Part shown: piece by piece, positions 7,279 to 47,603 of the stretch | Layout: each line of letters opens with the position of its first letter | How positions within the stretch are numbered: the stretch's first letter is position 1 | NCBI GenBank assembly: GCA_004377185.1 | Contig: SOIM01000058.1 | Coordinates: forward strand, 67,828-131,827 | Direction: 5' to 3' | Source: Methanomassiliicoccales archaeon | GTDB taxonomy: Archaea > Thermoplasmatota > Thermoplasmata > RBG-16-68-12 > SOIM01 | Length of the DNA: 64,000 nucleotides | Notes under the pieces: generated by a model | The model's database searches: none | The model's input: the letters and a program-made list of their open reading frames with translations, nothing else | Told to the model about the DNA's origin: nothing | Translations under genes and position numbers: made by a program

Positions 7279-7566
7279 TTACCAAGAATGGGTGATTGCA
7301 CAGGGCTCGCAGGCCTCTATGCATGGTTCTGTCTTTGACTTATCCACTGGTTTGCACGGTCCGCAGGTGTACTTGATCTTCTTCCTTTCCGCTTCTATGA
7401 CCAGGGGTACTTCTTTCTCAGAGAGTGGGTCAAACGGGTCTGCGACCAATGCAAGAATCTTCGGCGGACAGACCTCAGCACATTTGCCGCAGCTGTCGCA
7501 TTTATCGGTATCGATGGTTATGAAGTACTCTCCCGATCCGTCCTTGTACCCGTAGTTGGCAAGCAT
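7279..7566 (-). CDS. 2x[4Fe-4S] ferredoxin (candidate electron donor of the adjacent ATP-dependent reductase/dehydratase)
   Basis: Internal ATG at 7566 with GGGGTGA SD gives 95 aa with CDSCGKCAEVCP and CGPC...CIEACEPC motifs. The longer track ORF would overlap the upstream ATPase gene, so the short form is preferred. Confidence 0.75.
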   Translation of the reverse strand: MLANYGYKDGSGEYFITIDTDKCDSCGKCAEVCPPKILALVADPFDPLSEKEVPLVIEAERKKIKYTCGPCKPVDKSKTEPCIEACEPCAITHSW

Positions 7567-7571
7567 CTGTC

Positions 7572-8453: not shown

Positions 8454-8456
8454 CTT

Positions 8457-9236
8457 CTAACCCCCTTCTGCCCTCTCCCTTGCTGCAAGAGCTGCCCCGA
8501 GGGCACCTACGTAATCCGGATCCTCAGGTACGAGAAGGTCCATGTTGAGGTCTCTCTTCAGAGATTCTACGAATCCCACATTCCTCGCTAATCCTCCAAT
8601 CAAGGCCACATCTTTTTCGATGGACAGTCTTCTTGTCATGGAAGAGATTCTGCTAGCCATTGCGTCATGGATTGCTCTTGCTATGTCCTGCTTTGCAGTC
8701 TTCGCATGAACGAGTGTGACGACCTCGGACTCGGCAAAAACAGCACACTGCGCGTTCATGGGAACGGCATTTTCTGACTTGAGGGACAGAGGACCCATCT
8801 CCTCGAGAGGGATTTCCAGGGCTCTGGACATCGCTTCTGTGAAGGCTCCCGCACCAGCAGCACATTTTTCGTTCACCACGAAATCCATCACTCTTCCTCT
8901 TTCGTCACATCTAAGGGCCTTTCCTTCCTCGGCACCGACTTCGATTATCGTCCTTGAGTTGGGAAAGAGAAATGTCGCTCCTTTTGCCGCGGCTCCAACC
9001 TGTGTTATCTCGTCATTCCTAAAAGGAACCTCTTTCTTGCCCACGCCGGTAGAAGTTATGTGCTTTATCTCATCTTTCGAAATCCCACCGCTCTCCAGGG
9101 CATCGTTGAAAGTTCTCTCGGCCGATTCGGTCAGGTTGAATCCACTAAGTGAAATGCTCTTTGATTTGATTTGTCCGTCGTCCAGGACAACGACCTTCAC
9201 GTACTTGGCGCCCATATCTATTCCTGCAACATACAT
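8457..9236 (-). CDS. BadF/BadG/BcrA/BcrD-family ATPase (activating subunit), copy 1
   Basis: Start at M8 (ATG 9236) with a perfect GGAGGTG SD. Motifs YVAGIDMGAKYVK, EKCAAGAG, CAVFAESE. Distinct from copy 2, which implies a heterodimeric ATPase. Confidence 0.85.
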   Translation of the reverse strand: MYVAGIDMGAKYVKVVVLDDGQIKSKSISLSGFNLTESAERTFNDALESGGISKDEIKHITSTGVGKKEVPFRNDEITQVGAAAKGATFLFPNSRTIIEVGAEEGKALRCDERGRVMDFVVNEKCAAGAGAFTEAMSRALEIPLEEMGPLSLKSENAVPMNAQCAVFAESEVVTLVHAKTAKQDIARAIHDAMASRISSMTRRLSIEKDVALIGGLARNVGFVESLKRDLNMDLLVPEDPDYVGALGAALAARERAEGG

Positions 9237-9260
9237 TTCCTCACACCTCCTTGACAATCC

Positions 9261-10574
9261 TCAATCCACCAATTTCTTCACTTCAAGAGCCTCCATGAAA
9301 GCATCCATTTTTCCCATCGTGCCGGCCTCGTCGAATTCCCTTTCATCTCCCATGTTTCCTTCGAACACCAACACTGGGAAACCGGCCTTCTGGAGTGCCA
9401 GTCTGTTCTCTGCTATGCCCAGGCTCAGTCCCTCGCAACCTCGATTGTAGTGCAACATGACACCATTGACGTGCCATTCTCTGGCTATCCTTATCATCAT
9501 TTCGCTCTTCAACTGGGGAGAGTAGAAGTGCTGCCATTCTGGTTTTGCAAGATTCCATATCACCAGTTCTCTCAATGCATCCTCCCTGGTGTTTATCGTG
9601 ATTCCTCTCTCCATAGGAGTGGTCTTTGGTTCCCAGGTTCCGTCCTCCTTCACTTCCCATGCCCCAGCTAGACCGAAGGAGTATAGAGAACCTATCGAGA
9701 TGCATCCGAATTTCTCGAGATACCTGAACACGCTCAAGAACCCCCACGGGGGTTGGGTATCACTCATCACCCGGGCCTGCTCGTTCCCAACAGCTGCAAT
9801 TCCTCGCTTTACTCTATCCTTCATTTCTTCATACAGGGTATCGTAGAAATCCGCAAACTCTTTCTTGGCCCTGCTCAGAACAGCGAAGACGTACAGGGAA
9901 TACATTGTTTTCTCATCGAGAGGGGCTGGGATGTTCTTGTTGAGTTCGCAGATCTTCGCCCAGGAGTTAGTCGATCGGAACTCGGTTTTCACAGCTTCGA
10001 TCAACTTCTTGTCGTCATAGGTTCTTCCGGTCGTTTTCTCCAGCCAATCGATACCGTCCATGAGCTGCCCGACAATGTACTGAATTCTGTTCTCATCAAT
10101 CGCCTCGAAGGGTCCGACTGCCACGTCTACCGAATAAGCTGGAATATCACCCTCCAACTCCGAAACGACCTGGTACCACTTGGCATGACTGCAACAAATA
10201 TGATCCTGCCAAACGAAATCAGCCTTTGGAAACTCCCCACCGAAGGCGTACTTGTTAAGAATGATTGAACCCCAATAATTCCTCATGTAGGAGCACAAGT
10301 CCCTTGCGTAGCCGGCAGCCTCCGTTGCTTCCAGGCATTGAAGTGAGAATTCTCTGTTGAACGCAATTGATGCGGCGTAGGGCTCCCCTGTTAGAGGATA
10401 GACATCATCACCTAGACCGTATGGCACAGCATCGAAGGACCAAGCGCCCCCGCACCATCTAATTCCACCCTCTTCGTGAGCTTTGGCGTAATCCTCATAA
10501 TACTTCATTCTCAATCTTTTTGCTTCTTTCCAGCATTTCAAGGGCTCTGTCGGGTATTTTGTTTCCGTTGCCAT
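9261..10574 (-). CDS. 2-hydroxyacyl-CoA dehydratase / benzoyl-CoA reductase catalytic subunit (HgdB/BcrB/BadE family)
   Basis: 437 aa with HgdB/BcrB-family fold signatures. GGAGGTG SD. Tightly coupled to the neighbouring genes. Confidence 0.8.
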
Positions 10575-10586
10575 TTGTTCACCTCC

Positions 10587-11711
10587 TCAGAAAAGATCCT
10601 CCCCTTCAAGCATCTCCAGAAATGCCTCCACGCGTGTCTTGAACTGTCCAACTGCTACCGTCACATCCAGTTCCAAGAACAACGTTTGTATGCCATTCGA
10701 TTCCAGTGTCTTTTTTATGGAAGGAATGTCCAACTCATGAGGGTCGCAGAACTTCTGCTGTAGCAGTATCGCACCGCTCACATTCCAATCCTTTGCAATG
10801 TTGAGAATATGGGGAATCCTAGTCCTTACCTCCCAGTCCTTGCTCGGGCAGGGAGGTCTCTGCACGTACCTCTCAGCTATTGCCAGGAGCCTGTCCCCGT
10901 TCGGCTGGACATCATTCCAAAAATACCTGCTGCCAGTGCAGTGGTCATCAGCAACGATTGTCGAACCGCAGCCTTCCACCATATCTACGAATTTCGTGTC
11001 GTCATTCTCGCTGCCCAGAATCATCAGCCTTTGACCCGTTGATCTCTCCAGCTTTCTCCCCTGAAGTTCCTTGATCGTCTCCTCAAGAATGTCACTGTGG
11101 TCGTTCTTCTCGATCGTCTGACTTGAAACGGCCATATACATTGCTTCCAGACCTGTCATCGGCGGGTCCGCCTCTTTCCGAAGCTCGTAGGCCTCTCGCA
11201 TCAACCGCCTGTTCTTGTTCATCATCTCTATTCCGCGATCCAGGTCTTCGTCCGTAATCTCTTTTTCCGTCCAATCCTCAACTGCCTTCTTGAACCTCTC
11301 GAGTTCGCCTTTCAGATAGGGGACGGCCCGAGGACTCTGCACCTTGTTGGGCATGGGAAGGTAGTAGCTGAATGGAACGGGTATGTGCATCTCCCAGCTG
11401 GTGTAGGCTTGCCTGATGTGCAGGCACGATTGTGCGATCATTAAACCATCAAGATAGTCGTATCTCCCCTTCAATCCTTGAGCCAGACAGTCCCTGCAGA
11501 ACGGGCAGAACATACCGAAGATATGCGGTTCGGTTACGTCCTGCGGCTCATGACTGCCCAGAATGCGTACCGGCAACACGTCCGCGGCCAGGAGTATCTC
11601 CTCCGGCACATACGTGCAGAAATAGCCCATCACCTTTCCACCAGTCTTCTCCTTCCATTCCTTAGCGTACTCGTGTTTTGCATCGTACCATTCTTTGAAC
11701 ATCTCAATCAT
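10587..11711 (-). CDS. 2-hydroxyacyl-CoA dehydratase / benzoyl-CoA reductase catalytic subunit (HgdA/BcrC/BadD family)
   Basis: Start at internal ATG 11711 (M100 of the track ORF) with a GGAGAGGAGGATGAGG SD, overlapping the GNAT stop by ATGA. 375 aa, HgdA-like Cys-containing fold. Confidence 0.8.
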   Translation of the reverse strand: MIEMFKEWYDAKHEYAKEWKEKTGGKVMGYFCTYVPEEILLAADVLPVRILGSHEPQDVTEPHIFGMFCPFCRDCLAQGLKGRYDYLDGLMIAQSCLHIRQAYTSWEMHIPVPFSYYLPMPNKVQSPRAVPYLKGELERFKKAVEDWTEKEITDEDLDRGIEMMNKNRRLMREAYELRKEADPPMTGLEAMYMAVSSQTIEKNDHSDILEETIKELQGRKLERSTGQRLMILGSENDDTKFVDMVEGCGSTIVADDHCTGSRYFWNDVQPNGDRLLAIAERYVQRPPCPSKDWEVRTRIPHILNIAKDWNVSGAILLQQKFCDPHELDIPSIKKTLESNGIQTLFLELDVTVAVGQFKTRVEAFLEMLEGEDLF

Positions 11712-12148
11712 TTCCTCATCCTCCTCTCCAGGTTGATGAATTCGCTCCTTTCGAAGCCTATTGATTTGAAGAATGCAAGCAGGTCGCTCGAATCCCATCT
11801 CACGGCTGTGAAAATCCTGTTTATCCCCTTTGAGTTGAAACCTCTGAGCATGGCCTTTCCGAGCTTCTTGCCAATCCCTTGACCCATGTAGTTGGGATCG
11901 ATACCCACATCCACGAGCCAGCCGCTCTTGGTGACACCGAAATCCAGCGTCTTGGTCTCCCCTATGATGAAGCCCACTACCTTCTTGCTGAATGTTGCCA
12001 CAAAACATTGATTATCACTCTCGAGCAGACGAATGGCGATCTCGTGCTGCCAGAACTTGGGCACCTTCTTCTTGGTTATGGATTCTCTTATGGCTATGGT
12101 TGCCGGGATGTCTTTCTCCCTCATCCTTCTTATTTCTACAGTGCTCAT
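11708..12148 (-). CDS. GNAT-family N-acetyltransferase
   Basis: 146 aa, GNAT-family fold. GAGGTGGGGG SD. Confidence 0.8.
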   Translation of the reverse strand: MSTVEIRRMREKDIPATIAIRESITKKKVPKFWQHEIAIRLLESDNQCFVATFSKKVVGFIIGETKTLDFGVTKSGWLVDVGIDPNYMGQGIGKKLGKAMLRGFNSKGINRIFTAVRWDSSDLLAFFKSIGFERSEFINLERRMRK

Positions 12149-12157
12149 TCCCCCACC

Positions 12158-12301
12158 TCATTCAAGTCTTATGATCTTGACCTTCTTGCCAACCCAGTCA
12201 GGCGGGAGGTATACCCTTCCGCTGTTTCCAGCCCGTTTGACTTCCTTCTCGATCATTTCCTGTCCGAAAACCTCGAACTTGGAATCTTTTGCTCTTGCCA
12301 T
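12158..12301 (-). CDS. AbrB/MazE-like swapped-hairpin small DNA-binding protein (DUF2080-like), first gene of the operon
   Basis: 47-aa ORF, below the track cutoff: MARAKDSKFEVFGQEMIEKEVKRAGNSGRVYLPPDWVGKKVKIIRLE. Carries the GNSGRVYLP..VGKKV hallmark of AbrB/SpoVT-type barrels. An AT-rich promoter lies immediately upstream. Confidence 0.5.
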   Translation of the reverse strand: MARAKDSKFEVFGQEMIEKEVKRAGNSGRVYLPPDWVGKKVKIIRLE

Positions 12302-34944: not shown

Positions 34945-35393
34945 AGTATCTGTTCTACTATCCAGATAAGTGCACTGGCTGCAAGCAATGTGCCATGGCG
35001 TGTTCCCTGAACAAGTTCGGCGAGTGCAACCCCAAGAAGTCGGCAATAAGCATAGTGAGAGATGAGTTCGAGAGATACGAGTATGCCATAGTCTGCATGC
35101 AGTGTGAGGACGCTCCGTGCATAGAGGTCTGTCATCAGGGTGCGTACTATCTTGAGGACAACATCATAAAGAGGAATGACGACCAGTGCATTCACTGCCG
35201 GCTCTGTGCCGCGGTCTGTCCCCATTCAGCCATAACCACGATAGGCAAGGAGATCGTGAAGTGTGACTTGTGTGATGGCGACCCGGAATGCGTGAAGTAT
35301 TGCTCCACGGAAGCCCTTGTCTATCAAGAAGAGACCAAAGAACAGTCGGAAAGAAGGCGACAACTGGCGAAGAAAATACTCTCAACTTCTTAG
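34941..35393 (+). CDS. Poly-ferredoxin-like 4Fe-4S protein (AOR electron-transfer partner)
   Basis: GTG start overlapping the AOR stop (GTGA). Four CxxCxxCxxxC(P)-type motifs (CTGCKQCAMAC, CMQCEDAPC, CIHCRLCAAVCP, CDLCDGDPEC). Confidence 0.75.
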   Translation: MKYLFYYPDKCTGCKQCAMACSLNKFGECNPKKSAISIVRDEFERYEYAIVCMQCEDAPCIEVCHQGAYYLEDNIIKRNDDQCIHCRLCAAVCPHSAITTIGKEIVKCDLCDGDPECVKYCSTEALVYQEETKEQSERRRQLAKKILSTS

Positions 35394-36599
35394 TGCTGGA
35401 TCAACATATCTGTCGTCAAGCAGATGGTGCCTTATCTCCTCCACATCGATTCCCTTTTTGACCAAACTGAGAAGATGGCCCGAGTTCCGTATCGCGCCAA
35501 TCATCTGAACCCCGGCAATCCTTCCATCCTTTATCAACATCTTCTTGACGGACCTGTTTGTCTTGACCTTCTCCACCTCAGGACCCTTCAACTCGAAAGA
35601 GGCCATGCCAATCGATAGGACCGGAGTGCCGTACACATCCAGTATGTTGATCGATTGCAGACCCTCGTATTGCCTCTCCACTCCCGCGATGTTGTGGCCT
35701 GCAATCTTCCCCTGGTCGACCGCATTCGGCCAGATGGCGTTCACCATCCTGCTTCCACGGACCTTGTCCTCAGCCTCCACAATGTCTCCCGCGGCGTAGA
35801 TGTCTTTCACGGACGTTCTGAGGTGGTCGTCCACCAAGATGCCGAAGTTGGTCTTGATTCCACTGCCCTTGAGGAATTCGGTGTTAGGCCTCACTCCTAT
35901 GCCCAGAACAACCATATCGCAAGAGGTTCGCCTCTTTCCTGACACGACTCCTTTCACCTTGCCGTTTCCAACTATCTCAGATACCTGCTTACCCAGTTTG
36001 AATCGAATGCCTTCCTTCTCGAGTATTCTCTGGACTTCAAGGGACATATCCTTGTCCAACATCTTCGGAAGAACGGAATCCAACATCTCGAAGACAACTA
36101 CTTCCAATCCCAATCTCTGGAGCGCAATAGCGCATTCAATCCCGATGAAACCAGCCCCAAGAACGACTGTCTCCTTGGTTCCTTTCTTAATCCATCTCAG
36201 TATATCTTCTGCGTCCGCCAGGTTCCCCAGGCCGAATACCCCTTCCAGGTCAATCCCGGGAATGGGTGGTCTGAGAGGTTGTGAACCCGCGGCAACCAGA
36301 AGTCTATCATACTTGACCTTGCGTCCATTCACCAAAACCGCCTTCTCTTTTGGTGCGATCTTGGAGACTGGCTTCCCGAGCAATGGCTTGACCTTGTTTC
36401 TCTCGTAGAAATCACTACCCACGCGGAATATGTTCTTCTTCTTGATCTCCCCGCCTATGAGATAGGGCAGCGAACAGGGGGAGTAAGGCATATGTTCTTC
36501 CTTGGAAATTGCAGTGATCTTGCACTTCTTGTCCAGCTCGCGTATCGTCTGAATCGCAGAAACGCCAGCGCCTCCAGTTCCGATGACCACCACATGCAT
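35382..36599 (-). CDS. FAD-dependent pyridine nucleotide-disulfide oxidoreductase (NADH oxidase / ferredoxin:NAD(P)+ reductase / CoA-disulfide reductase family)
   Basis: Start at MHVVVIGTGGAG (ATG 36599). Second Rossmann motif VVLGAGFIGIE. Active-site Cys region SPCSLPY. 406 aa. Convergent with, and overlapping, the ferredoxin gene tail. Confidence 0.8.
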   Translation of the reverse strand: MHVVVIGTGGAGVSAIQTIRELDKKCKITAISKEEHMPYSPCSLPYLIGGEIKKKNIFRVGSDFYERNKVKPLLGKPVSKIAPKEKAVLVNGRKVKYDRLLVAAGSQPLRPPIPGIDLEGVFGLGNLADAEDILRWIKKGTKETVVLGAGFIGIECAIALQRLGLEVVVFEMLDSVLPKMLDKDMSLEVQRILEKEGIRFKLGKQVSEIVGNGKVKGVVSGKRRTSCDMVVLGIGVRPNTEFLKGSGIKTNFGILVDDHLRTSVKDIYAAGDIVEAEDKVRGSRMVNAIWPNAVDQGKIAGHNIAGVERQYEGLQSINILDVYGTPVLSIGMASFELKGPEVEKVKTNRSVKKMLIKDGRIAGVQMIGAIRNSGHLLSLVKKGIDVEEIRHHLLDDRYVDPALRS

Positions 36600-36641
36600 C
36601 AATCGAAGCCCCTGTCCCATTGCAGATAGCACAAAACGATA

Positions 36642-38471
36642 TTAAAATGTTCCAGGCCTATAAATGAAGGTGAAGTAGTAGTAGAGAATGAGATAGACTC
36701 CAACGATCACCAGTATGAGACCGCTGACCTTCTTTATCGTGTCGGTATGAGCGCTCAGTTTCTGCACGGACTCCTGACCGAAGGCGGACAGCATGAAGGT
36801 TATCGCTACCATCAGGAGAAGAATGGTAATAGAGAATATCAGGATTAGCAATATGCCATCCAGCAGAGTTCCTGACACGATCCCTTCCAAAAGCAATCCG
36901 ACATAGAGCGGCGCAGTGCACGCGGAGGCCGCTGCCCCGTAACCAATCCCGTAACTGAACAACTTGGCGTAGTAACCTTTCTCGCTTTCAGCGTCCGGGT
37001 CTTTCTCACCAAAAAGCTTCACTCTGAGTTTCTGGAAAGGACGAATGAGAGCATGGTACTGAAGATTCGTGAACATGAGAGCCCCGAGAATGATGAGAAT
37101 TATCGCCACAATCGGGCTGAGGTAAACAGCATATCTTTCCACACCAGCTGTCTTTCCAAGAACGATTGCTATTATCCCGATTATCAGAAACACGAGGATT
37201 ATTCCAAAACCAGATACGAATCCACTTCCGAGAACTTTCTTCATCGATTTCTTCTTCTCTTCAGCTTCCGTGGTGAGATAGTAACTGATGTAACCAGGAA
37301 GCATCGGGAAGGAGCAGGGTGAGAAATAGGTGGCGAACCCAATGAAAACTGCGGTTGCGAGGATACCCACTAAATGCAAGGAAATAACCTGGGCGGTACC
37401 CTCAATGGCGGCACCAATCTCGCTTCTGAGCTCTTCAACACTAACACCGCTGGTGGAAATCTCATAGGTGGGATATCTGTCCTTGTTTATGACAACCAAC
37501 TTGGGAAGATCCTCAACCGAGAAGACATCAAATGTAAGACTGGCCGTGTCTCTAGCAATCGTCCAAGTCACTCCCTGAGCATCCCTGAACTCGCGAAGGG
37601 CCAAATCAGTGTCCGTACCCACGGCAATGGAAATGACTTCGATCTCGTTCTCATCAAAGACAGCGACGGCGTCCTCCAGCTTTTCCCTTAATTCCTCGCA
37701 AGGCCTGCAACTGGTTGCCATGAAGTCCAGAATGATGACCTCATCTGGGTAATCTGAGAGATTCCAAGGATTTCCATCTATGTCAACGAGTGAGAAGTCT
37801 TCCACTTTGTTGACCTTGCCAGAAAGCCCGCTCAAGCTGATCGCACCATAGAGAATTGCTATTGTCAGAAAGAGGACGATTCCGACAACCAGGACCTTGT
37901 TCGATCCTGTGGTGATTTTCTTCCTTTTTCTGTAAATGAGAATTCCAGCTAGCGAGACCATCAGAACTCCCAAAATCACCTCCGCAGCAATCACTTCGAT
38001 CGGAATCTCAATGGCGACCTCGATAGGCGGCAGTGCACCAGTGTAGTTGTAGTAGTAGTAATCATGATCTCCGTCTCCAGGAGCGTAGCCAATGGTCTGG
38101 TTTGCATAAATGACCCTGATCTTATACCCTATCATAGTGCCGCCGTCAAAGGGCCTGGTTATGTTGTAACGGAACGTCTGGTTTCCCAGGTCCTCCATAA
38201 TCTCGAAGTAGCATGTGCCGACAGTCATTGTTTCGGGGTCGACCGTGCAATACTGGGTCTCAACAACATTTACCTCGGTGATATTCTCAATCTCAGCATG
38301 CACAGATACAGACTGACCTGCAAAGGGTTCTTCAGGCGTGTGATAAACGTTCAATATGTTGCCATCAAGGGCCGAGGCGTTCGGAGAGGTGAACAAAAAC
38401 GCAAATAGCAGAACCAGAAGTGAGAGGAGGGCTGTCAGACCTCTCTTTGTGTTAGATACTCTGAACACCAA
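36642..38471 (-). CDS. DsbD-family thiol:disulfide interchange protein: extracytoplasmic Ig-like domain, TlpA/ResA-like thioredoxin domain (CRPC), CcdA-type membrane domain
   Basis: Signal peptide, HTP...ANQT Ig-like domain, TM, DFMATSCRPCEE thioredoxin motif, FSPCSFPMLPGY and ASACTAPL CcdA motifs. Confidence 0.8.
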   Translation of the reverse strand: MVFRVSNTKRGLTALLSLLVLLFAFLFTSPNASALDGNILNVYHTPEEPFAGQSVSVHAEIENITEVNVVETQYCTVDPETMTVGTCYFEIMEDLGNQTFRYNITRPFDGGTMIGYKIRVIYANQTIGYAPGDGDHDYYYYNYTGALPPIEVAIEIPIEVIAAEVILGVLMVSLAGILIYRKRKKITTGSNKVLVVGIVLFLTIAILYGAISLSGLSGKVNKVEDFSLVDIDGNPWNLSDYPDEVIILDFMATSCRPCEELREKLEDAVAVFDENEIEVISIAVGTDTDLALREFRDAQGVTWTIARDTASLTFDVFSVEDLPKLVVINKDRYPTYEISTSGVSVEELRSEIGAAIEGTAQVISLHLVGILATAVFIGFATYFSPCSFPMLPGYISYYLTTEAEEKKKSMKKVLGSGFVSGFGIILVFLIIGIIAIVLGKTAGVERYAVYLSPIVAIILIILGALMFTNLQYHALIRPFQKLRVKLFGEKDPDAESEKGYYAKLFSYGIGYGAAASACTAPLYVGLLLEGIVSGTLLDGILLILIFSITILLLMVAITFMLSAFGQESVQKLSAHTDTIKKVSGLILVIVGVYLILYYYFTFIYRPGTF

Positions 38472-38532: not shown

Positions 38533-39042
38533 ATGGAAAAGTCTATTGAGAGATTCGGCATTCCCTGTCGTATGAGCGAAGAGGACCTCATCTCCAAGAT
38601 ACTCAGAACTCGGTACGGGAGGATTGATCTGAAGGCTTCAGACCACGGACTTTTCGAACTGGCTCTGAACGGCAGACTCAAAAAAGGGGTAGGCACCAAC
38701 AGGATGCTCGACAAACTCCAGATGGACTTGGAGAGGTATTTCAAAGGAAAGCCTGTGGATTTCTCAGAGATCCAGCTGGACATGTTAGGATACACTCCGT
38801 TCGAAAGAGATGTACTGGCTGCCACAAAACGAATACCTTACGGCAAAACGAAGAGCTACAAGGACATAGCCGAAGAGATCGGACGTCCTCAAGCCTTCCG
38901 AGCGGTGGGCAATGCTCTGGGAAAGAACAGGACAGCGATAATCGTACCGTGCCATCGTGTCGTTTCAGAGGGGGGCTTGGGAGGATTCGGTGCAGGCACT
39001 GAATGGAAGAAGAGACTTCTCAGGCTGGAAGGTATCCTCTAG
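38533..39042 (+). CDS. ogt: Methylated-DNA--protein-cysteine methyltransferase (Ogt/MGMT)
   Basis: Start ATG 38533. C-terminal IVPCHRVV active site and helix-turn-helix. 169 aa. Confidence 0.85.
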   Translation: MEKSIERFGIPCRMSEEDLISKILRTRYGRIDLKASDHGLFELALNGRLKKGVGTNRMLDKLQMDLERYFKGKPVDFSEIQLDMLGYTPFERDVLAATKRIPYGKTKSYKDIAEEIGRPQAFRAVGNALGKNRTAIIVPCHRVVSEGGLGGFGAGTEWKKRLLRLEGIL

Positions 39043-39069
39043 TTCAGAAATTGAACGGAAGTGATTGTT

Positions 39070-40221
39070 ATGAAGGCAAAGCAAGGGCTTTCCACCAAAT
39101 GTGTCCATGCGGGCAAGACTGTTTGTGGAAGAGTGGCGCCAGTGGCCAGTCCGATTTTCCAGACCTCTACGTACTATTACCCGAAGGAGGAATCGGCGGG
39201 TTACATCTACACGAGAATCGAGAACCCTACGCAGGAGGTAGTGGAAGAGAAGATAGCAGCTCTGGAAGGAGGTAGGGAGGGTCTGGTCTTCTCGTCCGGG
39301 ATGGCCGCAATAACCACGACCGTTCTCTCAACTGTGGGGGAAGGAGGGCATTTGATTGCATTTGAGGACCTGTACGGAAACACTTACACTTTCTTCAAAT
39401 CGGGGCTTGAGAAGTATGGCATTGACGTTACACTGATCAAAGCAAAAGACGCAACTGGAATAGGGAGGTTCATCAGGAAGAACACGAAAGCGGTCTTTCT
39501 TGAATCCCCTACGAACCCTTTGATGAGGATTGTTGATATCCCCAAGGTTGCCAAGGTCGCACACAAGAAATCAGTTAAGGTAATCGTTGACAACACCTTC
39601 GCGACCCCGATAAACCAAAGACCTCTGGAGCTGGGAGCGGACATAGTCGTACACAGCGGTTCGAAATACCTGAACGGGCACAGCGATGTCATATCGGGAC
39701 TGATGGCTGGCAATAGAGAGAATGTGCAGGAGATAAAGGAGTTAAGAACCACCCTTGGAGGATGCCTGGACCCACATGCTTCCTACCTCTTGCAGAGGGG
39801 AATGATGACTTTGTCCATCAGAATGGCCAAACACAACGATAACGGTCAGAGGGTTGCTGAGTTTCTCGAAAACCACAAGAAGATAGATCGGGTGCACTAC
39901 CCAGGCTTGTCGTCACATCCTGATCATGAACTGGCGAAGAGCATGATGCACGGGTTCGGAGGTATGCTAAGCTTCGAAGTGAAGGGGAGAAGAAAGGAAG
40001 CCAACAGGTTCCTGAAGGAGCTCAAGCTCTTGCTGGCGGCACCCAGCTTGGGCGGGGTCGAGACTCTGATAAGTGTCCCTGCCGAGACCTCACATTCCTA
40101 TCTTTCTCGAAAAGAGAGACTGGGGCAGGGAATAAAAGACAATCTGGTTCGAATGTCAGTTGGTATAGAAGATTTTCAGGACATCAAGAGAGACTTGAAC
40201 CAAGCCTTGTCCAAGATCTGA
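39070..40221 (+). CDS. PLP-dependent Cys/Met metabolism enzyme (cystathionine gamma-synthase/lyase or methionine gamma-lyase family)
   Basis: ATG 39070 with GGAAGTGA SD. SGSKYLNGHSD Lys-PLP motif. 383 aa. Confidence 0.85.
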   Translation: MKAKQGLSTKCVHAGKTVCGRVAPVASPIFQTSTYYYPKEESAGYIYTRIENPTQEVVEEKIAALEGGREGLVFSSGMAAITTTVLSTVGEGGHLIAFEDLYGNTYTFFKSGLEKYGIDVTLIKAKDATGIGRFIRKNTKAVFLESPTNPLMRIVDIPKVAKVAHKKSVKVIVDNTFATPINQRPLELGADIVVHSGSKYLNGHSDVISGLMAGNRENVQEIKELRTTLGGCLDPHASYLLQRGMMTLSIRMAKHNDNGQRVAEFLENHKKIDRVHYPGLSSHPDHELAKSMMHGFGGMLSFEVKGRRKEANRFLKELKLLLAAPSLGGVETLISVPAETSHSYLSRKERLGQGIKDNLVRMSVGIEDFQDIKRDLNQALSKI

Positions 40222-40225
40222 TTCT

Positions 40226-41398
40226 TCACTCGTCAAAGAACCCTTCTGGCGTCATCGGCGACATCTTCCTCAAGTTGGTAACGATTTCTGGCAGAACTTC
40301 CAAGACGTAGTCAATATCCCCTTCCTGAGTGCCCCTCCCCAGGTTGAACTGAAGAGAGCCGTGGGCTTCCTCCGCCTTTACACCCATTGCAAGCAGTACG
40401 TGCGAGGGTTGCAGAGAGTCCGATACGCATGCCGAGCCAGTGGCGACCTGGATTCCCATGGAGTCAAGGTTCAAAACAATAGATTCGCCTTCTATGTAGT
40501 TGAAACGGATGTTCGCGCTAGTAGGTAACCTCTTTGTCGGATGGCCGTTCAAGTAGGATTCTTTCACGGAGCTTGTTAAATCTCCAATCAGCTTGTCTCG
40601 CAAGGCAGAGACTCTTGTTGCTTCCGATTCCATCATTTCAAGGGCAATCTCGGCAGCCTTTCCAAAGCCCATGATGGCAGGGACGTTCTCCGTTCCAGGC
40701 CTTTTTCCTCCTTCCTGCCTCCCTCCGTGGAACAAGGGTTTGAACCTCTTCTTAGTCACGCACAATGCCGAAGCACCTTTGGGTCCGTACAGTTCTTGTG
40801 AGGCAACGGAAACCATGTCCAGATTGTCCTTCTTCATATCGATTGGTATCTTGCCCGCAGCTGCAATTGCGTCCGAATGAAATGTTATCCCTTTCTCCTT
40901 GGCAATCTCCCCAATCTCTCTGATGGGCTGGATCGTGCCGACCTCGTTGTTAGCATACATAATCGTGATCAGAATCGTCTCGTCCCTGATGCTCTTCCTG
41001 AGTTCCTCAACCTGGACTATCCCGTCGTTGTCTACTGGAACCTGGGTTGTCTCAAAACCTTCCTTTTCCAGAGACTTGAGGGTCCTAAGGACTGAATCAT
41101 GCTCGAATGCAGAGGTGATGATGTGATTGCCTTTCTCTTTGAATTGGTGCGCTGTTCCTATTATCGCCAGGTTGTTGGATTCGGTCCCGCAGGAAGTGAA
41201 GATAACATCGTCCTGTTTTGAATTCACCAGCTCTGCTATGCTTTCTCTTGCTTCCTCGATAGCTGCCTTTGCTTCGAAACCCAAGGAATATACGCTTGAA
41301 GGATTTCCGAACTTCTCGCCAAAATAGGGCATCATGAATTCCAAAACCTTCGGATCTACCGGCGTTGCGGCCCCGTAGTCCATATACACTTTTCTCAA
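40226..41398 (-). CDS. Cysteine desulfurase (NifS/IscS class)
   Basis: TTG start with GGGAGAGGT SD. SASQELYGPKG Lys-PLP region and SGSACVS active-site Cys loop. 390 aa. Confidence 0.9.
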   Translation of the reverse strand: MRKVYMDYGAATPVDPKVLEFMMPYFGEKFGNPSSVYSLGFEAKAAIEEARESIAELVNSKQDDVIFTSCGTESNNLAIIGTAHQFKEKGNHIITSAFEHDSVLRTLKSLEKEGFETTQVPVDNDGIVQVEELRKSIRDETILITIMYANNEVGTIQPIREIGEIAKEKGITFHSDAIAAAGKIPIDMKKDNLDMVSVASQELYGPKGASALCVTKKRFKPLFHGGRQEGGKRPGTENVPAIMGFGKAAEIALEMMESEATRVSALRDKLIGDLTSSVKESYLNGHPTKRLPTSANIRFNYIEGESIVLNLDSMGIQVATGSACVSDSLQPSHVLLAMGVKAEEAHGSLQFNLGRGTQEGDIDYVLEVLPEIVTNLRKMSPMTPEGFFDE

Positions 41399-41455
41399 GG
41401 CAAACCTCTCCCAACAATATCATGAGAACTTGGCATAAATTCTTTTGCATATTCT

Positions 41456-42439
41456 CTAGACAGGAAAAGGCTTTGTCACCATTCTCGCGATATGAAAACC
41501 AGATTTTGCGATTTCTATGACGGGCCTAGGATGCTTTTTCCTCAAGAATTTCCGATATCTCTTAATTATCTCAGAGGCTTTGGTTTGATTGTTGTTCAGA
41601 AAGGCCTGGTAGGAATCGAGTGCGATGTCACGCGCGGTCTCGTACTCCTCGGCCTCAAATCTCACGTCCTTCAAAAGCAACATCGCATCCAGCATCATCC
41701 ACAGGTCTTCCGCCATCCCTAGGAAGATAATGCCAAGGGCGGCCTGGTGGTCATCTGGAGTTTCAATGATGAACCGAGACCCTGCTTCACATGCCTCTTC
41801 CACACTGGTCTCAGCCCTTTCAGCCAAAGCATCGATGTCAGAAAAATCCTTCCTGACCAGCTTACCGTCCAATTCCTTGATGACACCAACGTAATCGCCC
41901 AGCTTCTCAAAGGCCTTCAAGAAGAGGTCCTTGGTCTCGACCTTCTCGATATAGTCGAAGACCTCACCGCCCTTTATCTCGGACGTGGATTTTGGAATGT
42001 CAACAAATGGCGGTGAAGCGAGTATCGGACAGATTTTCTTTGAGCATTCCGCACACGCACCAGAGGTGCAGTAGATAAGGGGTCTTCCACAGCTGCAGGG
42101 AATGGTTCCCCAGAGCGTTCTGCCGATGATGTCCAGCGTTTTCCTAGCGTCCTCTTCGTCTTTTGCCCTCCTGATTATTATCTTTCCGCCCTTGAACACA
42201 TGGATCCTCTTACCTTCCCACTCAGCGAGAGCGTATCCCATCTCCTCGGAACATCTCAGACTGTCGAAGAGACCTACTCGGCGAAGAGAACTGCACATCT
42301 GCTTGGTATCGAAGAAGTCCTCGCCCGGCCTACCGAATGGTGAGCCCAAATAGAGCTTGGCTTCGATAGTCACGTATCCCTCCTCGGTGCAGGGGTGAAT
42401 CTGGAATATAATCTTGGATTTGTCAACCTCTTCATTCAT
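41456..42439 (-). CDS. Cys-rich hypothetical protein (C-x-C-x7-C-x4-C-x2-C-x5-C cluster), function unknown
   Basis: Start ATG 42439 overlapping the upstream stop (ATGA). Motif IPCSCGRPLIYCTSGACAECSKKICP. No family recognised. Confidence 0.5.
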   Translation of the reverse strand: MNEEVDKSKIIFQIHPCTEEGYVTIEAKLYLGSPFGRPGEDFFDTKQMCSSLRRVGLFDSLRCSEEMGYALAEWEGKRIHVFKGGKIIIRRAKDEEDARKTLDIIGRTLWGTIPCSCGRPLIYCTSGACAECSKKICPILASPPFVDIPKSTSEIKGGEVFDYIEKVETKDLFLKAFEKLGDYVGVIKELDGKLVRKDFSDIDALAERAETSVEEACEAGSRFIIETPDDHQAALGIIFLGMAEDLWMMLDAMLLLKDVRFEAEEYETARDIALDSYQAFLNNNQTKASEIIKRYRKFLRKKHPRPVIEIAKSGFHIARMVTKPFPV

Positions 42440-43266
42440 CCTTTCTGGCTCCCAACCATTTCTCTGAGCATTTCCCCATGCACAGAACACAATCGCCCAC
42501 TAACTATTTGAGCGTTGATAACTTCCTCTTGCCAGTGAGCGTTGAACAGGATACAATTCCTGTCCTTGCAGAAGGGCTCCCCAGTCGCATGATAGAAAAG
42601 TGACTGAAGCACGTAGCCTTTCAACGCTTGCGTGATATTCTCATCGCCATGGTCAATGAATCTGCCTTTGATAGATTCCTTCAACTCCTCGACGGGCGGC
42701 TCGGCACCCACAGCAGCGTATTTCTGTTTGATCACATAGAACTCCTTTGGCTTTGCAGGTGCTTCCACCAATCCACTGGTGGAGATGAGAGAAGGATATC
42801 CGCACATTATCACACGTGCATGGTACCTGGCATCACCCTTCTCATACGTGCAGAATATTCTGTTTGTGAAAACCACATGGGCGAAGTCTGTGCGTAGTTC
42901 TTTCTCAGGAAGCAACTCTCTGAATGCCTGCTGCAGTCGGAATCCGTCATAGAGCATCCCCATGATCCTTCTGTGCGGTTCCCTGAGCATTCTCTTCTCG
43001 AACTGGACCTCTCCGTAAAGCGGTTCCGCCTCTTCCTTCAGACCTTCCATCCCCCTCACCTTGGTCGCTGCCAGTTTCTCTGCTAGCTTGTCCAGATCAC
43101 GGGAATGAAAAGAAAGGAAATCTTTCCTCATCCTGACATCAAGGTCGGGTATCTTCTCCTTCAGAAAATCCTCAATCTCTCCAATCCTGAGACTGGGAGT
43201 TGAGGGTTCGTCATAAAGATACACAACGGACGGTAAAGTCCGATCAGCCTTTCTTGAGGAGCTCAT
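42436..43266 (-). CDS. Hypothetical protein with C-terminal Cys/His cluster (FCKDRNC...H...C..H)
   Basis: 276-aa ORF translationally coupled between the Thi4 and Cys-rich genes. No recognisable catalytic motif. Confidence 0.5.
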
Positions 43267-44029
43267 AAGCGATTCCCGCTCCCTTTCTTCCCGAAAGAAG
43301 CATGGAACCGAATGTGGGACCCATTCTGGGAAGTCCGTAGGTGGCGGAAACAGCCATTCCTATTGCGACCAGTCCAGGATGCACTTCACCGGTGTGTTCC
43401 ACGACCAGGTCCTCAGACTTCTCCACCCACATCCCTCCTTCGCCTACTTTCTTGATCAGTCCTCTCTGCTCCAGTTTGGAAACAACGTGAGCTTCGTGAC
43501 CAGTTCCGTCTATTACCACCTTGCATTCGAAAGCAACTGGGTCCACACAGGTGATCTCTCTCGGAAGAGCGGCAACCGGAGTCCAATTGACCACAACGCC
43601 AGCCACCCTGTTGTCCTCTCTCATAACAACATCATCGAACCTGGTCATGTTCAGTATCTTCACGCCAGCATCACAAGCAGATGCTATTAACTTAGAACAA
43701 GCGTGCGGACCAGGGGTAACATAGAGATCTTTGCTGTGCTCTTCGAACGGAATCCCTAACTCCTTCAGAATCTCATGACCGGGGGCCCGAACGGTAATGG
43801 TGTTCATCAGATACCCACCAATCCAAAATCCGCCACCGAGGTAGTTGTTCCTCTCGACAATTAAGACCCTGACATCCTTCGAGGCAAGCTCTCGTCCCGC
43901 CATCAGACCGCTGGGTCCTCCTCCGACAATGATGACCTCGGTCTCCGCGAACTCCCTTATATCTCTAGCGAAACCATCAATTATTGCCTTGGTGACTTGA
44001 CTTTCAGTAGCTTTCTTGAACACGGGCAT
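43244..44029 (-). CDS. thi4: Thiazole synthase Thi4 (sulfide-dependent archaeal type) / ribose-1,5-bisphosphate isomerase family
   Basis: Start at MPVFKK (ATG 44029, GAGGTTGGGG SD). Dinucleotide motif [11 protein letters not shown], and [18 protein letters not shown]. 261 aa. Confidence 0.85.
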
Positions 44030-44104
44030 ATGAACCCCAACCTCAGGTATCCTACTCAAAGAGAAGTTGCGTATAAAGGTATTGTGGTTTCCCAGAGCCA
44101 AAGA

Positions 44105-44827
44105 CTACGATTCGGTCGACTTCAGTGCCCCTCGCTTGGTGGCGACCTCCCCTACAATCCTTCCGTCCTCAATCTTGAGGGTTCTGTGAGCTATGGATGA
44201 AATCCTTTGATCGTGAGTGACGATGATTACCGTCTTCCTGTACTTGGTGTTCAGGCTGTGGAACAGATCGAGCATTTGCTTTCCAGTGTCGGTGTCCAGC
44301 TCTCCTGTCGGTTCATCTGCAAGCACAAGAGGAGGATCATTCGCCAATGCGACCGCAATCGCTATCCTCTGCTGTTCCCCACCGCTCAGCTCGTCCGGTT
44401 TATGGATTGCCCTATCGTGCATGTGCACCAAATCTAGCAACTCGTTCGTTCTGGATTTCCTCTCCTTAGAGGTTTTGCCTGCAAGTCTCATCGGAAGCTG
44501 GACGTTCTCCTTGGCCGTGAGTGTGGGTACAAGATTGAAGAACTGGAACACGAAACCGACCCTTTCCCTTCTGTACTTCACCATCTCCGGATCAGAATAA
44601 TGAACGATGTTCGCCCCATCCACAACTATGGAGCCGGCAGTCGGCCTATCCAAGCCGCCTATGAGGTTCAAAAGAGTCGTCTTACCACATCCCGAGGGCC
44701 CTTGTATGGCGACAACTTCCTTATCCTGGATTTCCAGATCCAATCCCCTTAGGGCGATGACTTCGGACTTTCCCGTTCTGTAGACCCTTATGAGGTCCTG
44801 CGTAACAATCTTAGGGATTTTAACCAC
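44105..44827 (-). CDS. ABC transporter ATP-binding protein (MacB/LolD-like)
   Basis: GPSGCGKTT Walker A, LSGGEQQRIAIA signature, LVLADEPTG Walker B. Confidence 0.9.
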   Translation of the reverse strand: MVKIPKIVTQDLIRVYRTGKSEVIALRGLDLEIQDKEVVAIQGPSGCGKTTLLNLIGGLDRPTAGSIVVDGANIVHYSDPEMVKYRRERVGFVFQFFNLVPTLTAKENVQLPMRLAGKTSKERKSRTNELLDLVHMHDRAIHKPDELSGGEQQRIAIAVALANDPPLVLADEPTGELDTDTGKQMLDLFHSLNTKYRKTVIIVTHDQRISSIAHRTLKIEDGRIVGEVATKRGALKSTES

Positions 44828-47603
44828 CTCGTTTTCTTAATGCTTGAGCCAATTTCATTCTTCTAATCCTCAACGTAGCAAGTAATGAAGCAACAATCAG
44901 AATGACGATGGTCAAGAGAATCAGGATCAATGTCTGGAAGGAAACCACCAACGGCATATCAAGAACTCCTTGCCCTAGGCCCACTATTCCGAAGGACAAG
45001 AGTTCGTTGAAAACAAAGGCGGTCACCAAACCAGTGACGATCCCTATCACACAGCCGATGATGATTATCGTTACAGCCTCCCCCAAAAGAAGGCGGGCGA
45101 CCTGCCTAGAACTCGCACCTCTGGACATTATACTAGCGAACTCCCCTTCCCTCTCGGTGGCAGCCACGTACATGATGAGGCCCAAACCTACCCCGATGAT
45201 CAGCAATGCGAAGGCGAACTCCACAAGCAAGAAGTTGAATAGAGCTCCGGTGAATGGTTCACTCTTGGCCTTTTCCAGCTCTTCCTCGTAAACGAGGATA
45301 TCGGTGATTTCGACAGGATAGGAAACTCTTATGCTTTCTCCGACAGCTACCGGGTCCTGGCCAGACTCAACATTCAAAATGAACTTCCATGTTTGATTTC
45401 CGAAAGTGGTCTCATTCAAAGTGACGAAGTCTACATACATCTCGCCCTCGGTGAAGATTCCGATGTCTGGGCCCATGAAACCCGGCAGAGTTTTGACGAT
45501 CCCTACGACAGTGAATTGATAGTCGACTTCCTCTGATTGCCAGGTTCCATTCTCATCAGTGTAGGAATTGTGAACTTCTACGGGGAAAACATCATTCACT
45601 CTCAAGTACTGAGATTCTGCGAGTTTTTCAGTTACAATCACATTTCCAAGAGTGCTCAGCATGGAGATTGTGGATGCGGGTTCTCCTTCCTTGAAGTAGT
45701 AAGGATCTGGTTGAACGACCTCCCAGTAAGCAGACGAATTGATTGCCCATACGTTCGTATGGATATTTTCATATCCAGAGATTGCACTAAGCTTTGCGGT
45801 TTCAGTTAACTTGTCTACTCCCCCGATATCTTGTATCTCGGTTCCAAATGACCTGTTTACTGTCAAGGCAACAAGGGCGATATCACCACCTATCTGTGCC
45901 TCCAGACTCCTCTCTATGTAAGCGGCCTGAGTCTCTCCCATTGAAGAAACGACTATACCGAACGCCAGTCCCATTGCAATAAGAACACAAACGCTAGAAG
46001 CCCTCTTGGGATTCCGAACTATGTTCTTGTTCACAATCGCATAGAGGTCTTTGGTAAAGAACTTCGTAGCTCGGGAAGTCCAGTCGTAGATTTTGGTGGA
46101 GAATCTCGTCAATAAGCTTGTAACACCAATAATCAAGAAGAAAGGCGAAAGCGGTGTAAGAACCATCAAGAGGGGCGCGATCAGACAGAGTGCGAATGTG
46201 AGAGGAGTACCCGCCCCAGTGAAGTGCTTCATAAGGAGCAAGGTCGCATAGGTGAAAATAGCCAGTGCGATGAAGATTACGTCCCTTAGGGGTTTGTATC
46301 GAAGGGCGGCCTCTTCTTCCGAATACTTGTGCAATGCCTCGGTCACGGGAATAGTTGAGGCCCTTTTGGCAGGTCTATAAGCGGAAAAGAGCAGAAGCGC
46401 AATGGCCAGAACTATTGCCAGAACAATGGTGAATTCGGTTATAGTCATCTCTAGTAGAGAGGGAGCTACTCCGTAAGGGGACGCCATCGAGAAAAGGTTG
46501 CTCGCAAGAGCTCCAAAGATGAGTCCTAATATTCCGGCAATCACGCCCAGAATGAGGGCCTCAATGATTAGAAGCCCAAAGACCTGACGACGGTTTGCAC
46601 CTCTGGCCTTGAGCACACCAATCTCTCTCCGTCTCTCGCTCAAACCGAGCTCTGCACCGATTATGCCAAGGTATACGCCGAGGATTATTGCAGGCAGAGC
46701 CAAAGCAAGGAAAATCGCTCGGTACATCATGATCCAGATGCTGAAGAACCCAACGATGAAGCCAAGCATGCTATCTTCGAAAGATATTTCATAGGGGACA
46801 CCAGCATTGTTCAAATCCCTTTTCATTCTCCCCAGAAGTTCGTTCGTTTTCGCTGGATCGCCGGCTTTGACGACCGCATCTTTGTTTATCCAAACGTAGT
46901 AGCTTGAGTACAAACCATATCCAAAGTAATCCTGCAAGTCAAAAGCGGAGATAATAAGCTCGACATCCTCCAAATTGACAAAGATCGTATCAAAAAACCA
47001 GAACATCGGACCAAACATGGGGAATTCGTCTTCTCCCGGTTTTTCGACCTGGACAACCTTGGCAACCGAGAAATTGAGAAAATAGTATTCCGGCTCTGGA
47101 GCCATGTAGTTTGTGTACCGCAGAGTCACTTGATCTCCTGGTGATACTTCAGCCTCAACGGCCATATCCTCAGTGAGCACAATATGGCCTCTGGGAACAG
47201 AAGGGTCGGACACGAAACCGAACTTGTTGGCCACCCGACTGAAGGTGGAGCTAATTGCTTGCAGGGTTGCGAAGGTAACGTTTTGGGAACCATTGTATCC
47301 CCACTCACATATCTCAACCATGCCGAGGTCAACGATTGGCTCCACCATTTCTACGTTCGTGACATTAGCCAGGTCCCGAGTTGCATTGGTGAACTCTCGA
47401 TTGGTACTAGATCTGCCTACGAAGTCATAGCTCACAGTGTCCATCATCTGTTTGAACACAGAACCTGTGGTAGTATCGATAGCCACATTTTCTCCAGCCA
47501 CAAGGGTAACGGCCAGAAGGACGCCAATTATTGCAGCGAACGTTCTCCTCTTGTTTCGAAAGATACTTTGTATTGCATACTTGGAAAAGGACAGAAATGA
47601 CAA
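44820..47603 (-). CDS. Large FtsX/MacB-like ABC permease (927 aa, two FtsX 4-TM modules with big extracytoplasmic domains)
   Basis: TTG start. N-terminal FtsX-type hairpin (IFRNKRRTFAAIIGVLLAVTLV), repeated FtsX-like TM bundles. Overlaps the ATPase start. Confidence 0.8.
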   Translation of the reverse strand: MSFLSFSKYAIQSIFRNKRRTFAAIIGVLLAVTLVAGENVAIDTTTGSVFKQMMDTVSYDFVGRSSTNREFTNATRDLANVTNVEMVEPIVDLGMVEICEWGYNGSQNVTFATLQAISSTFSRVANKFGFVSDPSVPRGHIVLTEDMAVEAEVSPGDQVTLRYTNYMAPEPEYYFLNFSVAKVVQVEKPGEDEFPMFGPMFWFFDTIFVNLEDVELIISAFDLQDYFGYGLYSSYYVWINKDAVVKAGDPAKTNELLGRMKRDLNNAGVPYEISFEDSMLGFIVGFFSIWIMMYRAIFLALALPAIILGVYLGIIGAELGLSERRREIGVLKARGANRRQVFGLLIIEALILGVIAGILGLIFGALASNLFSMASPYGVAPSLLEMTITEFTIVLAIVLAIALLLFSAYRPAKRASTIPVTEALHKYSEEEAALRYKPLRDVIFIALAIFTYATLLLMKHFTGAGTPLTFALCLIAPLLMVLTPLSPFFLIIGVTSLLTRFSTKIYDWTSRATKFFTKDLYAIVNKNIVRNPKRASSVCVLIAMGLAFGIVVSSMGETQAAYIERSLEAQIGGDIALVALTVNRSFGTEIQDIGGVDKLTETAKLSAISGYENIHTNVWAINSSAYWEVVQPDPYYFKEGEPASTISMLSTLGNVIVTEKLAESQYLRVNDVFPVEVHNSYTDENGTWQSEEVDYQFTVVGIVKTLPGFMGPDIGIFTEGEMYVDFVTLNETTFGNQTWKFILNVESGQDPVAVGESIRVSYPVEITDILVYEEELEKAKSEPFTGALFNFLLVEFAFALLIIGVGLGLIMYVAATEREGEFASIMSRGASSRQVARLLLGEAVTIIIIGCVIGIVTGLVTAFVFNELLSFGIVGLGQGVLDMPLVVSFQTLILILLTIVILIVASLLATLRIRRMKLAQALRKRGG

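Follow-up and report, generated by a model that had tools for sequence, protein, structure and literature searches.

The window analysed here, a stretch of 64,000 nucleotides from a Methanomassiliicoccales archaeon, contains a minus-strand locus (40226-44029) that is the junction of two conserved gene pairs in one tightly packed operon. One pair encodes the thiazole synthase Thi4 and a protein of family DUF6775. The other encodes a protein that we call ORF2 and a class-I homologue of the cysteine desulfurases IscS and NifS without the pyridoxal 5'-phosphate (PLP) lysine, here IscS*. ORF2 is the new part of the locus and belongs to an undescribed archaeal family. It is most likely, with slightly better than even confidence on our part, an iron-sulfur (Fe-S)-binding accessory subunit of the archaeal minimal IscS/IscU (MIS) machinery. 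An earlier note on this DNA had proposed a different arrangement, in which an active cysteine desulfurase and two unassigned Cys-rich proteins feed sulfur to a sulfide-dependent Thi4.

A junction of two conserved gene pairs

The locus consists of four co-directional genes, Thi4, a 276-aa open reading frame (ORF), ORF2 and the IscS/NifS homologue (Table 1). The first two genes overlap by 23 nt, and the TGA stop of the second overlaps the ATG of ORF2 as ATGA at 42436-42439; the earlier note had read this overlap, the shared direction and the Thi4 start at 44029 correctly. A spacer of 57 nt separates ORF2 from IscS*, and one of 75 nt lies 5' of Thi4. We placed the start of ORF2 at the ATG at 42439 rather than the GTG at 42490, because its homologues are 326-327 aa long and begin MNE. 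Full-length homologues of the window genes, with 65-97% identity, occur in the same order in five other contigs of related Thermoplasmata/Methanomassiliicoccales metagenome-assembled genomes (MAGs), and the four genes are therefore real and not chance ORFs. The complete four-gene order is found in four of these MAGs (L001-L004), with ORF2 identities of 65-86%, and in L005 the match ends inside ORF2 (query residue 219) with no IscS match after it. Rfam models detected neither a thiamin pyrophosphate riboswitch nor any other RNA family in the window, where no tRNAs were found either.

IscS* did not behave as a canonical desulfurase sequence. It has the class-V aminotransferase fold (PF00266, 238 bits, 2e-70) and scored below the equivalog cut-offs of TIGR03402 (516.8 vs 530.75) and TIGR02006 (426.8 vs 643.2). 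Its best PDB match was the Archaeoglobus fulgidus IscS (AfIscS; 4eb5, E 6.3e-127). Compared with the motif S-x-H-K-x-x-G-P-K-G, IscS* replaces the His by Q201 and the Lys by E202 (ASQELYGPKG). The corresponding segments are SSNDIYGPKG in wild-type 4eb5, SSNKIYGPKG in 4r5f, which we take to be the D199K variant of AfIscS, and SAHKMYGPKG in the canonical 9wep. The same loss extends to every class-I IscS beside an ORF2 homologue, where SQE, SQD or ANP was found, while the SufS-type neighbours keep HK. AfIscS is reported to have no desulfurase activity owing to the Lys substitution, and to contribute a cysteine as ligand to the [2Fe-2S] cluster held by IscU (PMC7585200; PMC8918507, refs 92, 93). 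Judged by its sequence, IscS* is unlikely to be a persulfide-generating desulfurase, and the earlier label of an active enzyme does not fit it.

The Thi4 assignment is well above the model cut-offs (PF01946, 229.8 bits vs 26.2; TIGR00292, 238.9 bits vs 148.3), and relatives in the PDB are 7rk0, 6hk1, 4y4n and 1rp0. Cys161 (REITCVDP) aligns with the Cys of TQSCMDP in Arabidopsis THI1 (1rp0), which is the active-site Cys there and the counterpart of yeast C205. Methanococcal Thi4s of the sulfide-dependent kind (4y4n and 4y4m) have His here, and 7rk0 has Met. The same Cys was present in L001, L002, L010, L013 and L015. With Cys161 at the sulfur-donor position, we concluded that this Thi4 is of the Cys-type ("suicide", EC 2.4.2.60) and not, as had been assumed, of the sulfide-dependent His-type (EC 2.4.2.59).

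The 276-aa protein, previously listed as unassigned together with ORF2, is a clear member of PF20565 (DUF6775; 322.5 bits vs a cut-off of 27, with 255 of the 259 model positions covered), and its sequence matches that of locus tag E3J35_10545, from a Methanomassiliicoccales archaeon MAG, at 100% identity. Only the 327-aa ORF2 remains without a Pfam or NCBIfam family. The fold of the DUF6775 protein is archaemetzincin-like, a relation visible at the fold level only, and its profile matched no PDB sequence. It lacks the zinc motif HExxHxxGxxH/D, reading S-L-F-Y-H226-A-T-G with the first His and the Glu gone, and HExxH was not found in any of 20 aligned homologues. In contrast, the C-terminal Cys/His site pointed out earlier held up well. 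C233, C238, C260 and H263 (a Cys3His site) are invariant in the 20 homologues, as are H130, H149, H226 and H244.

DUF6775 adjoins a Cys-type Thi4 in the window, L001-L005, L010-L013 and L015; in L029 the contig edge leaves no more than a fragment of DUF6775. A recent preprint (Oliveira-Filho et al., bioRxiv 10.1101/2025.09.23.678117) finds DUF6775 next to Cys-type Thi4 more often than any other neighbour, in 65% of its 40 representative genomes, and reports the same fold and Cys3His site, with NifS, NifU and ThiI recurring near Cys-type Thi4 or DUF6775. Its authors did not obtain soluble DUF6775 protein and proposed a metal-chaperone role for it, and persulfide or thiocarboxylate donors for the Cys-type Thi4s. 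As the window features match this description, the Thi4-DUF6775 pairing is already known and not new. Three assumptions about the locus are thus corrected, an active desulfurase, a sulfide-dependent Thi4 and two unassigned proteins, each of which could mislead experimenters.

The ORF2 family

A word-indexed search with ORF2 found 20 relatives, and all those with a source name came from Thermoplasmata-type MAGs. The same kind of search with a 40-sequence alignment (A2) added only P0212 and P0145, both already in the representative search. The wider family rests on an exhaustive profile search, which returned 174 cluster representatives at E<=1e-3 and 100 at E<=1e-10; the metagenome scan used a 10-sequence alignment (A3). 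Members with a named organism are all archaeal (Thermoplasmata, Hydrothermarchaeales, MSBL1, 'Ranarchaeia' and Euryarchaeota), and source names in the family include '(Fe-S)-binding protein', 'phosphate uptake regulator' and 'ArsR family metal-binding transcriptional regulator'. Literature searches on PF04060 with cysteine desulfurase, and on TBP-like domains with IscU, found no description of the family. We rejected one apparent relative, P0241 (1429 aa, 14 matches), as a TIL Cys-repeat protein that matches the Cys knot only.

The AlphaFold2 model of ORF2 (pLDDT, the predicted local distance difference test, 85.7; pTM, the predicted template modelling score, 0.84) shows a TBP-like domain with three conserved Cys residues, a six-Cys knot between domains and a PhoU-like bundle. 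The knot is the compact six-Cys motif that had been noticed earlier, with two spacings (x7 and x5) off by one; the actual pattern is CxCx6Cx4Cx2Cx4C. Among 40 diverse members C115, C117, C124, C129 and C132 are at least 90% conserved. All nine Cys residues occur in 40 of 130 members and the first eight of the nine in 59, C17 is present in 128, and most members have either both C49 and C63 or neither of them. These patterns of joint loss hint at metal sites, too inconsistently for the nine Cys residues to be assigned to them.

Relations of the individual domains to known families were faint. The TBP model (PF00352) matched several members at E 0.002-0.05, below its 22.9-bit cut-off, and stand-alone versions of the TBP-like domain of ~100 aa exist (P0213, P0247 and others). 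Three members (P0156, P0158 and P0247) weakly matched the C-terminal portion of the NCBIfam PRK13795 models for archaeal 'hypothetical protein' sequences (E 0.005-0.04). These matches, which are not strong enough to build on, hint that a further protein family may contain the TBP-like Cys domain. The PhoU model did not match the window ORF2, and matched P0158 only, weakly (22 bits vs a cut-off of 130); no pst or pho genes lie near ORF2. Long paralogues of ~385-500 aa carry an additional N-terminal [4Fe-4S] domain of the RnfB/CdhE type. All eight that we tested matched PF04060 there, seven above the 23-bit cut-off and P0189 below it (18.1 bits), and five tested against NCBIfam gave weak RnfB/CdhE-gamma matches in the same domain. 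PF04060 (N-terminal CxxCxxxxC...C) is absent from the 327-aa window protein. As the match is confined to the extra domain of the long paralogues, ORF2 was rejected as a homologue of the corrinoid Fe-S protein (CFeSP) or of RnfB.

To compare the gene neighbourhoods of the family, we sorted the loci by eye into 14 clades, according to protein length, gene context and sequence identity with the window ORF2. ORF2 adjoins IscS/SufS and/or IscU, or is fused to IscU, in 10 of the 14, and has Thi4-DUF6775 on its 5' side in three only (the window clade, L015 and a radical S-adenosylmethionine (SAM) clade). The earlier suggestion of new sulfur or Fe-S carriers feeding Thi4 thus keeps its sulfur/Fe-S theme, and the tie of ORF2 is mainly to IscS, SufS and IscU. 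ORF2 followed by a class-I Lys-less IscS occurs in the window, L001-L004, L006, L015 and L032. The order ORF2-IscU-SufS-like was found in L007/L008/L020 and L033, and L030, a short contig with the same helix-turn-helix (HTH) gene upstream, was grouped with the L007 clade by similarity. IscU precedes ORF2 in L009, L024, L027 and L028, and ORF2 lies beside an Aminotran_5 gene in L014 and L035. P0245 (L037) joins IscU (NifU_N/IscU, 4e-39) and the N-domain of ORF2 (E 2.8e-15, hhalign probability 98.5%) in a single protein.

Thi4-DUF6775-ORF2 is followed by a radical-SAM gene in L010-L013; L029, with the DUF6775 fragment alone upstream, belongs here too. The order Thi4-DUF6775-ORF2, with overlapping genes, is kept down to ~30% ORF2 identity (L010-L013, L015), and the DUF6775/ORF2 overlap in L013 is 20 nt. 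The radical-SAM protein, of 338 aa, takes the place of IscS (L013, 10927-11943; L010, 2885-3910) and has a core CxxxCxxC and a C-terminal CxxCxCC motif. The models closest to it in the L013 clade were those of sulfur-inserting enzymes (LipS2, BioB, LipA and MiaB), all far below cut-off. This clade also has a conserved ORF of 53-54 aa, without a family match, directly 5' of Thi4 (L013, 8205-8366; L010, 157-321), which has no counterpart in the window.

In L007 (6636-7746) and L008 (3912-5054), the ORF2-IscU-SufS operon comes after two further genes, one for a small HTH protein and one for a short PP-loop ATPase of the ThiI type (207-227 aa) that has neither a THUMP nor a rhodanese domain. This arrangement suggests that a thiolation enzyme and a regulator may be tied to the ORF2-IscU-SufS module.

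Table 1. Features of the locus and of its surroundings in the window.
Feature	Position	Strand	Remarks
Thi4, Cys-type, 261 aa from ATG at 44029	43244..44029	-	PF01946 3.4e-68; TIGR00292 239 bits
DUF6775 protein, 276 aa, archaemetzincin-like fold without HExxH	42436..43266	-	
ORF2, 327 aa, unnamed archaeal family	41456..42439	-	
IscS* (class-I IscS/NifS homologue without PLP lysine), 390 aa	40226..41398	-	
ORF2 N-terminal TBP-like alpha/beta domain, residues 11-108	42116..42409	-	conserved C17, C49, C63
ORF2 Cys knot, C115-x-C117-x6-C124-x4-C129-x2-C132-x4-C137	42029..42097	-	
ORF2 C-terminal PhoU-like helical bundle, residues 157-322	41474..41971	-	
IscS* codon of Glu202, PLP-Lys position (ASQELYGPKG)	40793..40795	-	alignment to 4eb5, 4r5f, 9wep; codon checked
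IscS* codon of Cys324 (ATGSAC loop), persulfide or cluster-ligand cysteine	40427..40429	-	Cys loop retained
Thi4 codon of Cys161 (REITCVDP), sulfur-donor position	43547..43549	-	aligns with Cys of TQSCMDP in 1rp0
DUF6775 C-terminal metal site region, H226-x2-G-x3-C233-x4-C238 ... H244 ... C260-x2-H263	42478..42591	-	codons checked
TTTATA, candidate archaeal TATA box in the 75-nt spacer 5' of Thi4	44072-44077	-	read from the sequence by eye; putative
MacB/FtsX-type ABC transporter	44105-47603	-	directly 5' of Thi4
PLP enzyme of Cys/Met metabolism	39061-40221	+	convergent to IscS*
O6-methylguanine-DNA methyltransferase gene	38533-39042	+	PF01035, PF02870
Thioredoxin/membrane-domain fusion and oxidoreductase	35382-38471	-	

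Possible roles of ORF2

What might ORF2 do beside a desulfurase homologue that has lost its lysine? As an accessory subunit of the MIS machinery, which has been described without accessory proteins (2026 review), ORF2 would bind to IscS or IscU, where it would keep newly forming clusters in place or service them by redox chemistry, a role comparable to that of the permanent-cluster domain of NifU or of ferredoxin in the iron-sulfur cluster (ISC) system. From the conservation of the Cys residues, the PF04060-bearing paralogues and the gene context, we infer that it would bind Fe-S rather than Zn, and it would probably be in physical contact with IscS/IscU. As IscS*, without the PLP lysine, is unlikely to make persulfide, the ORF2-IscS* pair would use sulfide and not cysteine, and would assemble its clusters from sulfide and Fe2+ in free form. 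Either the cluster itself or the iron and sulfide in it could serve the co-transcribed Thi4. Such a service, either as iron/sulfide supply or by restoring the spent Cys, is plausible, if unproven, given the gene overlaps and the conservation of the gene order to ~30% identity.

A bolder proposal, which we consider unlikely, makes ORF2 a third MIS component that builds clusters from sulfide together with the Lys-less IscS and replenishes the iron and sulfur of the Cys-type Thi4 for multiple turnovers. Here the three-Cys TBP-like domain would be an IscU-like or IscU-partner scaffold and the knot would give electrons, which the RnfB-type domain of the long forms would also supply.

Several observations weigh against a role of ORF2 in Fe-S assembly. 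Three clades have no Fe-S neighbours: a 421-aa clade (L018, L019, L021, L022, L023 and, provisionally, L025; Pfam-checked in L018, L019, L021 and L023 only), P0187 and P0163/P0164. The Cys residues could bind Zn instead of Fe-S, and tblastn found no IscU in the 64-kb window. In L004 a 1599-aa NosD/beta-helix/fn3 surface-type gene (7474-12273) parts ORF2 from the IscS homologue. The PhoU-like domain of the family has low sequence conservation and, by eye, no conserved E/DxxxD motif, which also makes it unlikely as an iron-binding site. Furthermore, the clades with Thi4-DUF6775-ORF2 are all Thermoplasmata with wider shared synteny, so that this linkage may be inherited rather than selected, and the HTH gene before ORF2 in L007, L008 and L030 fits a regulatory role equally well.

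That regulatory role, in which ORF2 would be an Fe-S-sensing regulator of isc/mis genes analogous to IscR or SufR, appears improbable. ORF2 would then either bind DNA by way of the TBP-like domain or work in the manner of PhoU, as a modulator that signals cluster status to a partner such as an HTH protein or IscS/IscU. The bacterial operon has the order iscRSUA, and ORF2 is likewise usually the first gene, 5' of IscU/IscS. It combines TBP-like and PhoU-like folds, PhoU domains are regulator domains, and the regulator names of some paralogues and the HTH gene directly 5' of ORF2 point the same way. However, neither the window protein nor 10 paralogues tested have an HTH or other known DNA-binding motif, and ORF2 is acidic (isoelectric point 5.6 overall, 6.1 for the N-domain). 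Its gene stands third in the Thi4 operon of the window and is neither divergent nor a leading regulator gene. The fusion of the N-domain to the IscU scaffold in P0245 suggests a direct role in assembly over DNA binding.

The two gene pairs could also be functionally uncoupled, with Thi4-DUF6775 serving thiamin synthesis and ORF2-IscS* general Fe-S assembly, as neighbours by ancestry only in a Thermoplasmata lineage. We regard this as decidedly unlikely, since the DUF6775-ORF2 junction is an overlap in the window as in L013, the gene order survives to ~30% ORF2 identity, and the protein that substitutes for IscS* is still of a sulfur-insertion type. Nevertheless, ORF2-IscS occurs without Thi4-DUF6775 in L006 and L032, and DUF6775-Thi4 is widespread without ORF2, with 796 DUF6775 matches vs ~20 for ORF2 in the same database and a preprint Table S3 that spans many phyla. 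The shared synteny of the clades with all the genes, and the insertion tolerated between ORF2 and IscS in L004, are consistent with this explanation too.

Finally, the model of the earlier note, a persulfide relay from an active desulfurase by way of both Cys-rich proteins to a Thi4 that depends on sulfide, is in our view very unlikely indeed. The four genes are co-transcribed and overlapping, and the nearly invariant C17 of ORF2 lies in a beta-hairpin loop modelled with lower confidence, a setting that might suit the Cys of a persulfide carrier. The persulfide or thiocarboxylate donors put forward in the preprint would also suit a relay. Against these points, the loss of the PLP lysine and the grouping with AfIscS, its closest solved relative and reported to be inactive, make a relay from IscS* unlikely; Thi4 is not of the His-type, DUF6775 has a metallopeptidase fold and not a known sulfur-carrier fold, and the operon has no ThiS, ThiF or rhodanese gene. 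As both of the formerly unassigned proteins are co-conserved with sulfur or Fe-S genes, the wider idea of a sulfur or Fe-S function is not overturned outright.

If ORF2 is indeed an Fe-S accessory subunit, anaerobic archaea with a minimal IscS/IscU would have in it a concrete, clonable candidate for the missing electron, iron or sulfur supply, especially where the IscS paralogue is dead. A Thi4-DUF6775 operon coupled to an Fe-S/sulfide module and not to an active desulfurase would narrow the possible routes of sulfur and metal supply. The locus also bears on whether prokaryotic Cys-type Thi4s truly die after one turnover.

Surrounding genes and known systems

Directly 5' of Thi4 lies an ABC transporter of the MacB/FtsX type, a duplicated permease of 927 aa and an ATPase with an 8-nt gene overlap. 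It is present in L013 and missing at that position in L001-L004, and is probably not part of the Thi4 unit, being missing beside Thi4 in the latter. On the other side, the convergent PLP enzyme (PF01053, 476 bits) is closest to the NCBIfam models for methionine gamma-lyase and cystathionine gamma-lyase/synthase, all below cut-off. The two genes are also neighbours in L001-L004 and even in L006, a distant locus. The PLP enzyme could release sulfide and so make up for the dead desulfurase. Further along are a 609-aa protein that joins a TlpA/ResA-like thioredoxin domain to a DsbD/CcdA-like membrane domain and, beside it, a pyridine-nucleotide-disulfide oxidoreductase resembling CoA-disulfide reductase or NADH oxidase. 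This thiol-redox pair is syntenic in L002, L003 and L013. The O6-methylguanine-DNA methyltransferase gene, between the thiol-redox genes and the PLP enzyme, has the same place in L002-L004, L006 and L013.

How does the locus compare with systems already described? The Cys-type Thi4 clusters of the preprint share with the window an active-site-Cys Thi4 followed directly by DUF6775, and a NifS-type gene in the cluster. In contrast to the window, none of its 40 tabulated genomes is named as Thermoplasmata or Methanomassiliicoccales. It does not describe a protein with TBP-like, Cys-knot and PhoU-like parts, nor remark that the NifS-type neighbour can lack the PLP lysine.

The single TBP-domain proteins (Brindefalk et al. 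2013, PMC3597702) resemble the ORF2 family in having stand-alone domain versions of ~100 aa. TBP itself is a tandem repeat, whereas ORF2 has one domain with the conserved C17, C49 and C63, and a context of Fe-S assembly rather than transcription. The PhoU proteins (1t72, 1xwm and 1sum) have a six-helix fold, to which the bundle of ORF2 conforms, and ORF2 adds Cys-rich domains that PhoU lacks.

The IscS-IscU system of A. fulgidus (4eb5, 4eb7 and 4hvk) is like IscS* in having an acidic residue in place of the PLP Lys (D199 there, E202 here) and in keeping the Cys loop. The partner of IscS in A. fulgidus is IscU, whereas in the window, with no IscU gene adjacent or within 64 kb, ORF2 occupies the neighbouring place. 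As for NifU, made up of IscU, permanent [2Fe-2S] and Nfu domains, and the ferredoxin of ISC, ORF2 has no sequence or fold kinship with the NifU central domain, the Nfu domain or ferredoxin, and the analogy would be a functional one. The concept in common is that of a scaffold with an extra Cys-ligated redox or cluster domain, and the fusion of IscU to the ORF2 N-domain in P0245 resembles that of IscU to the central domain in NifU.

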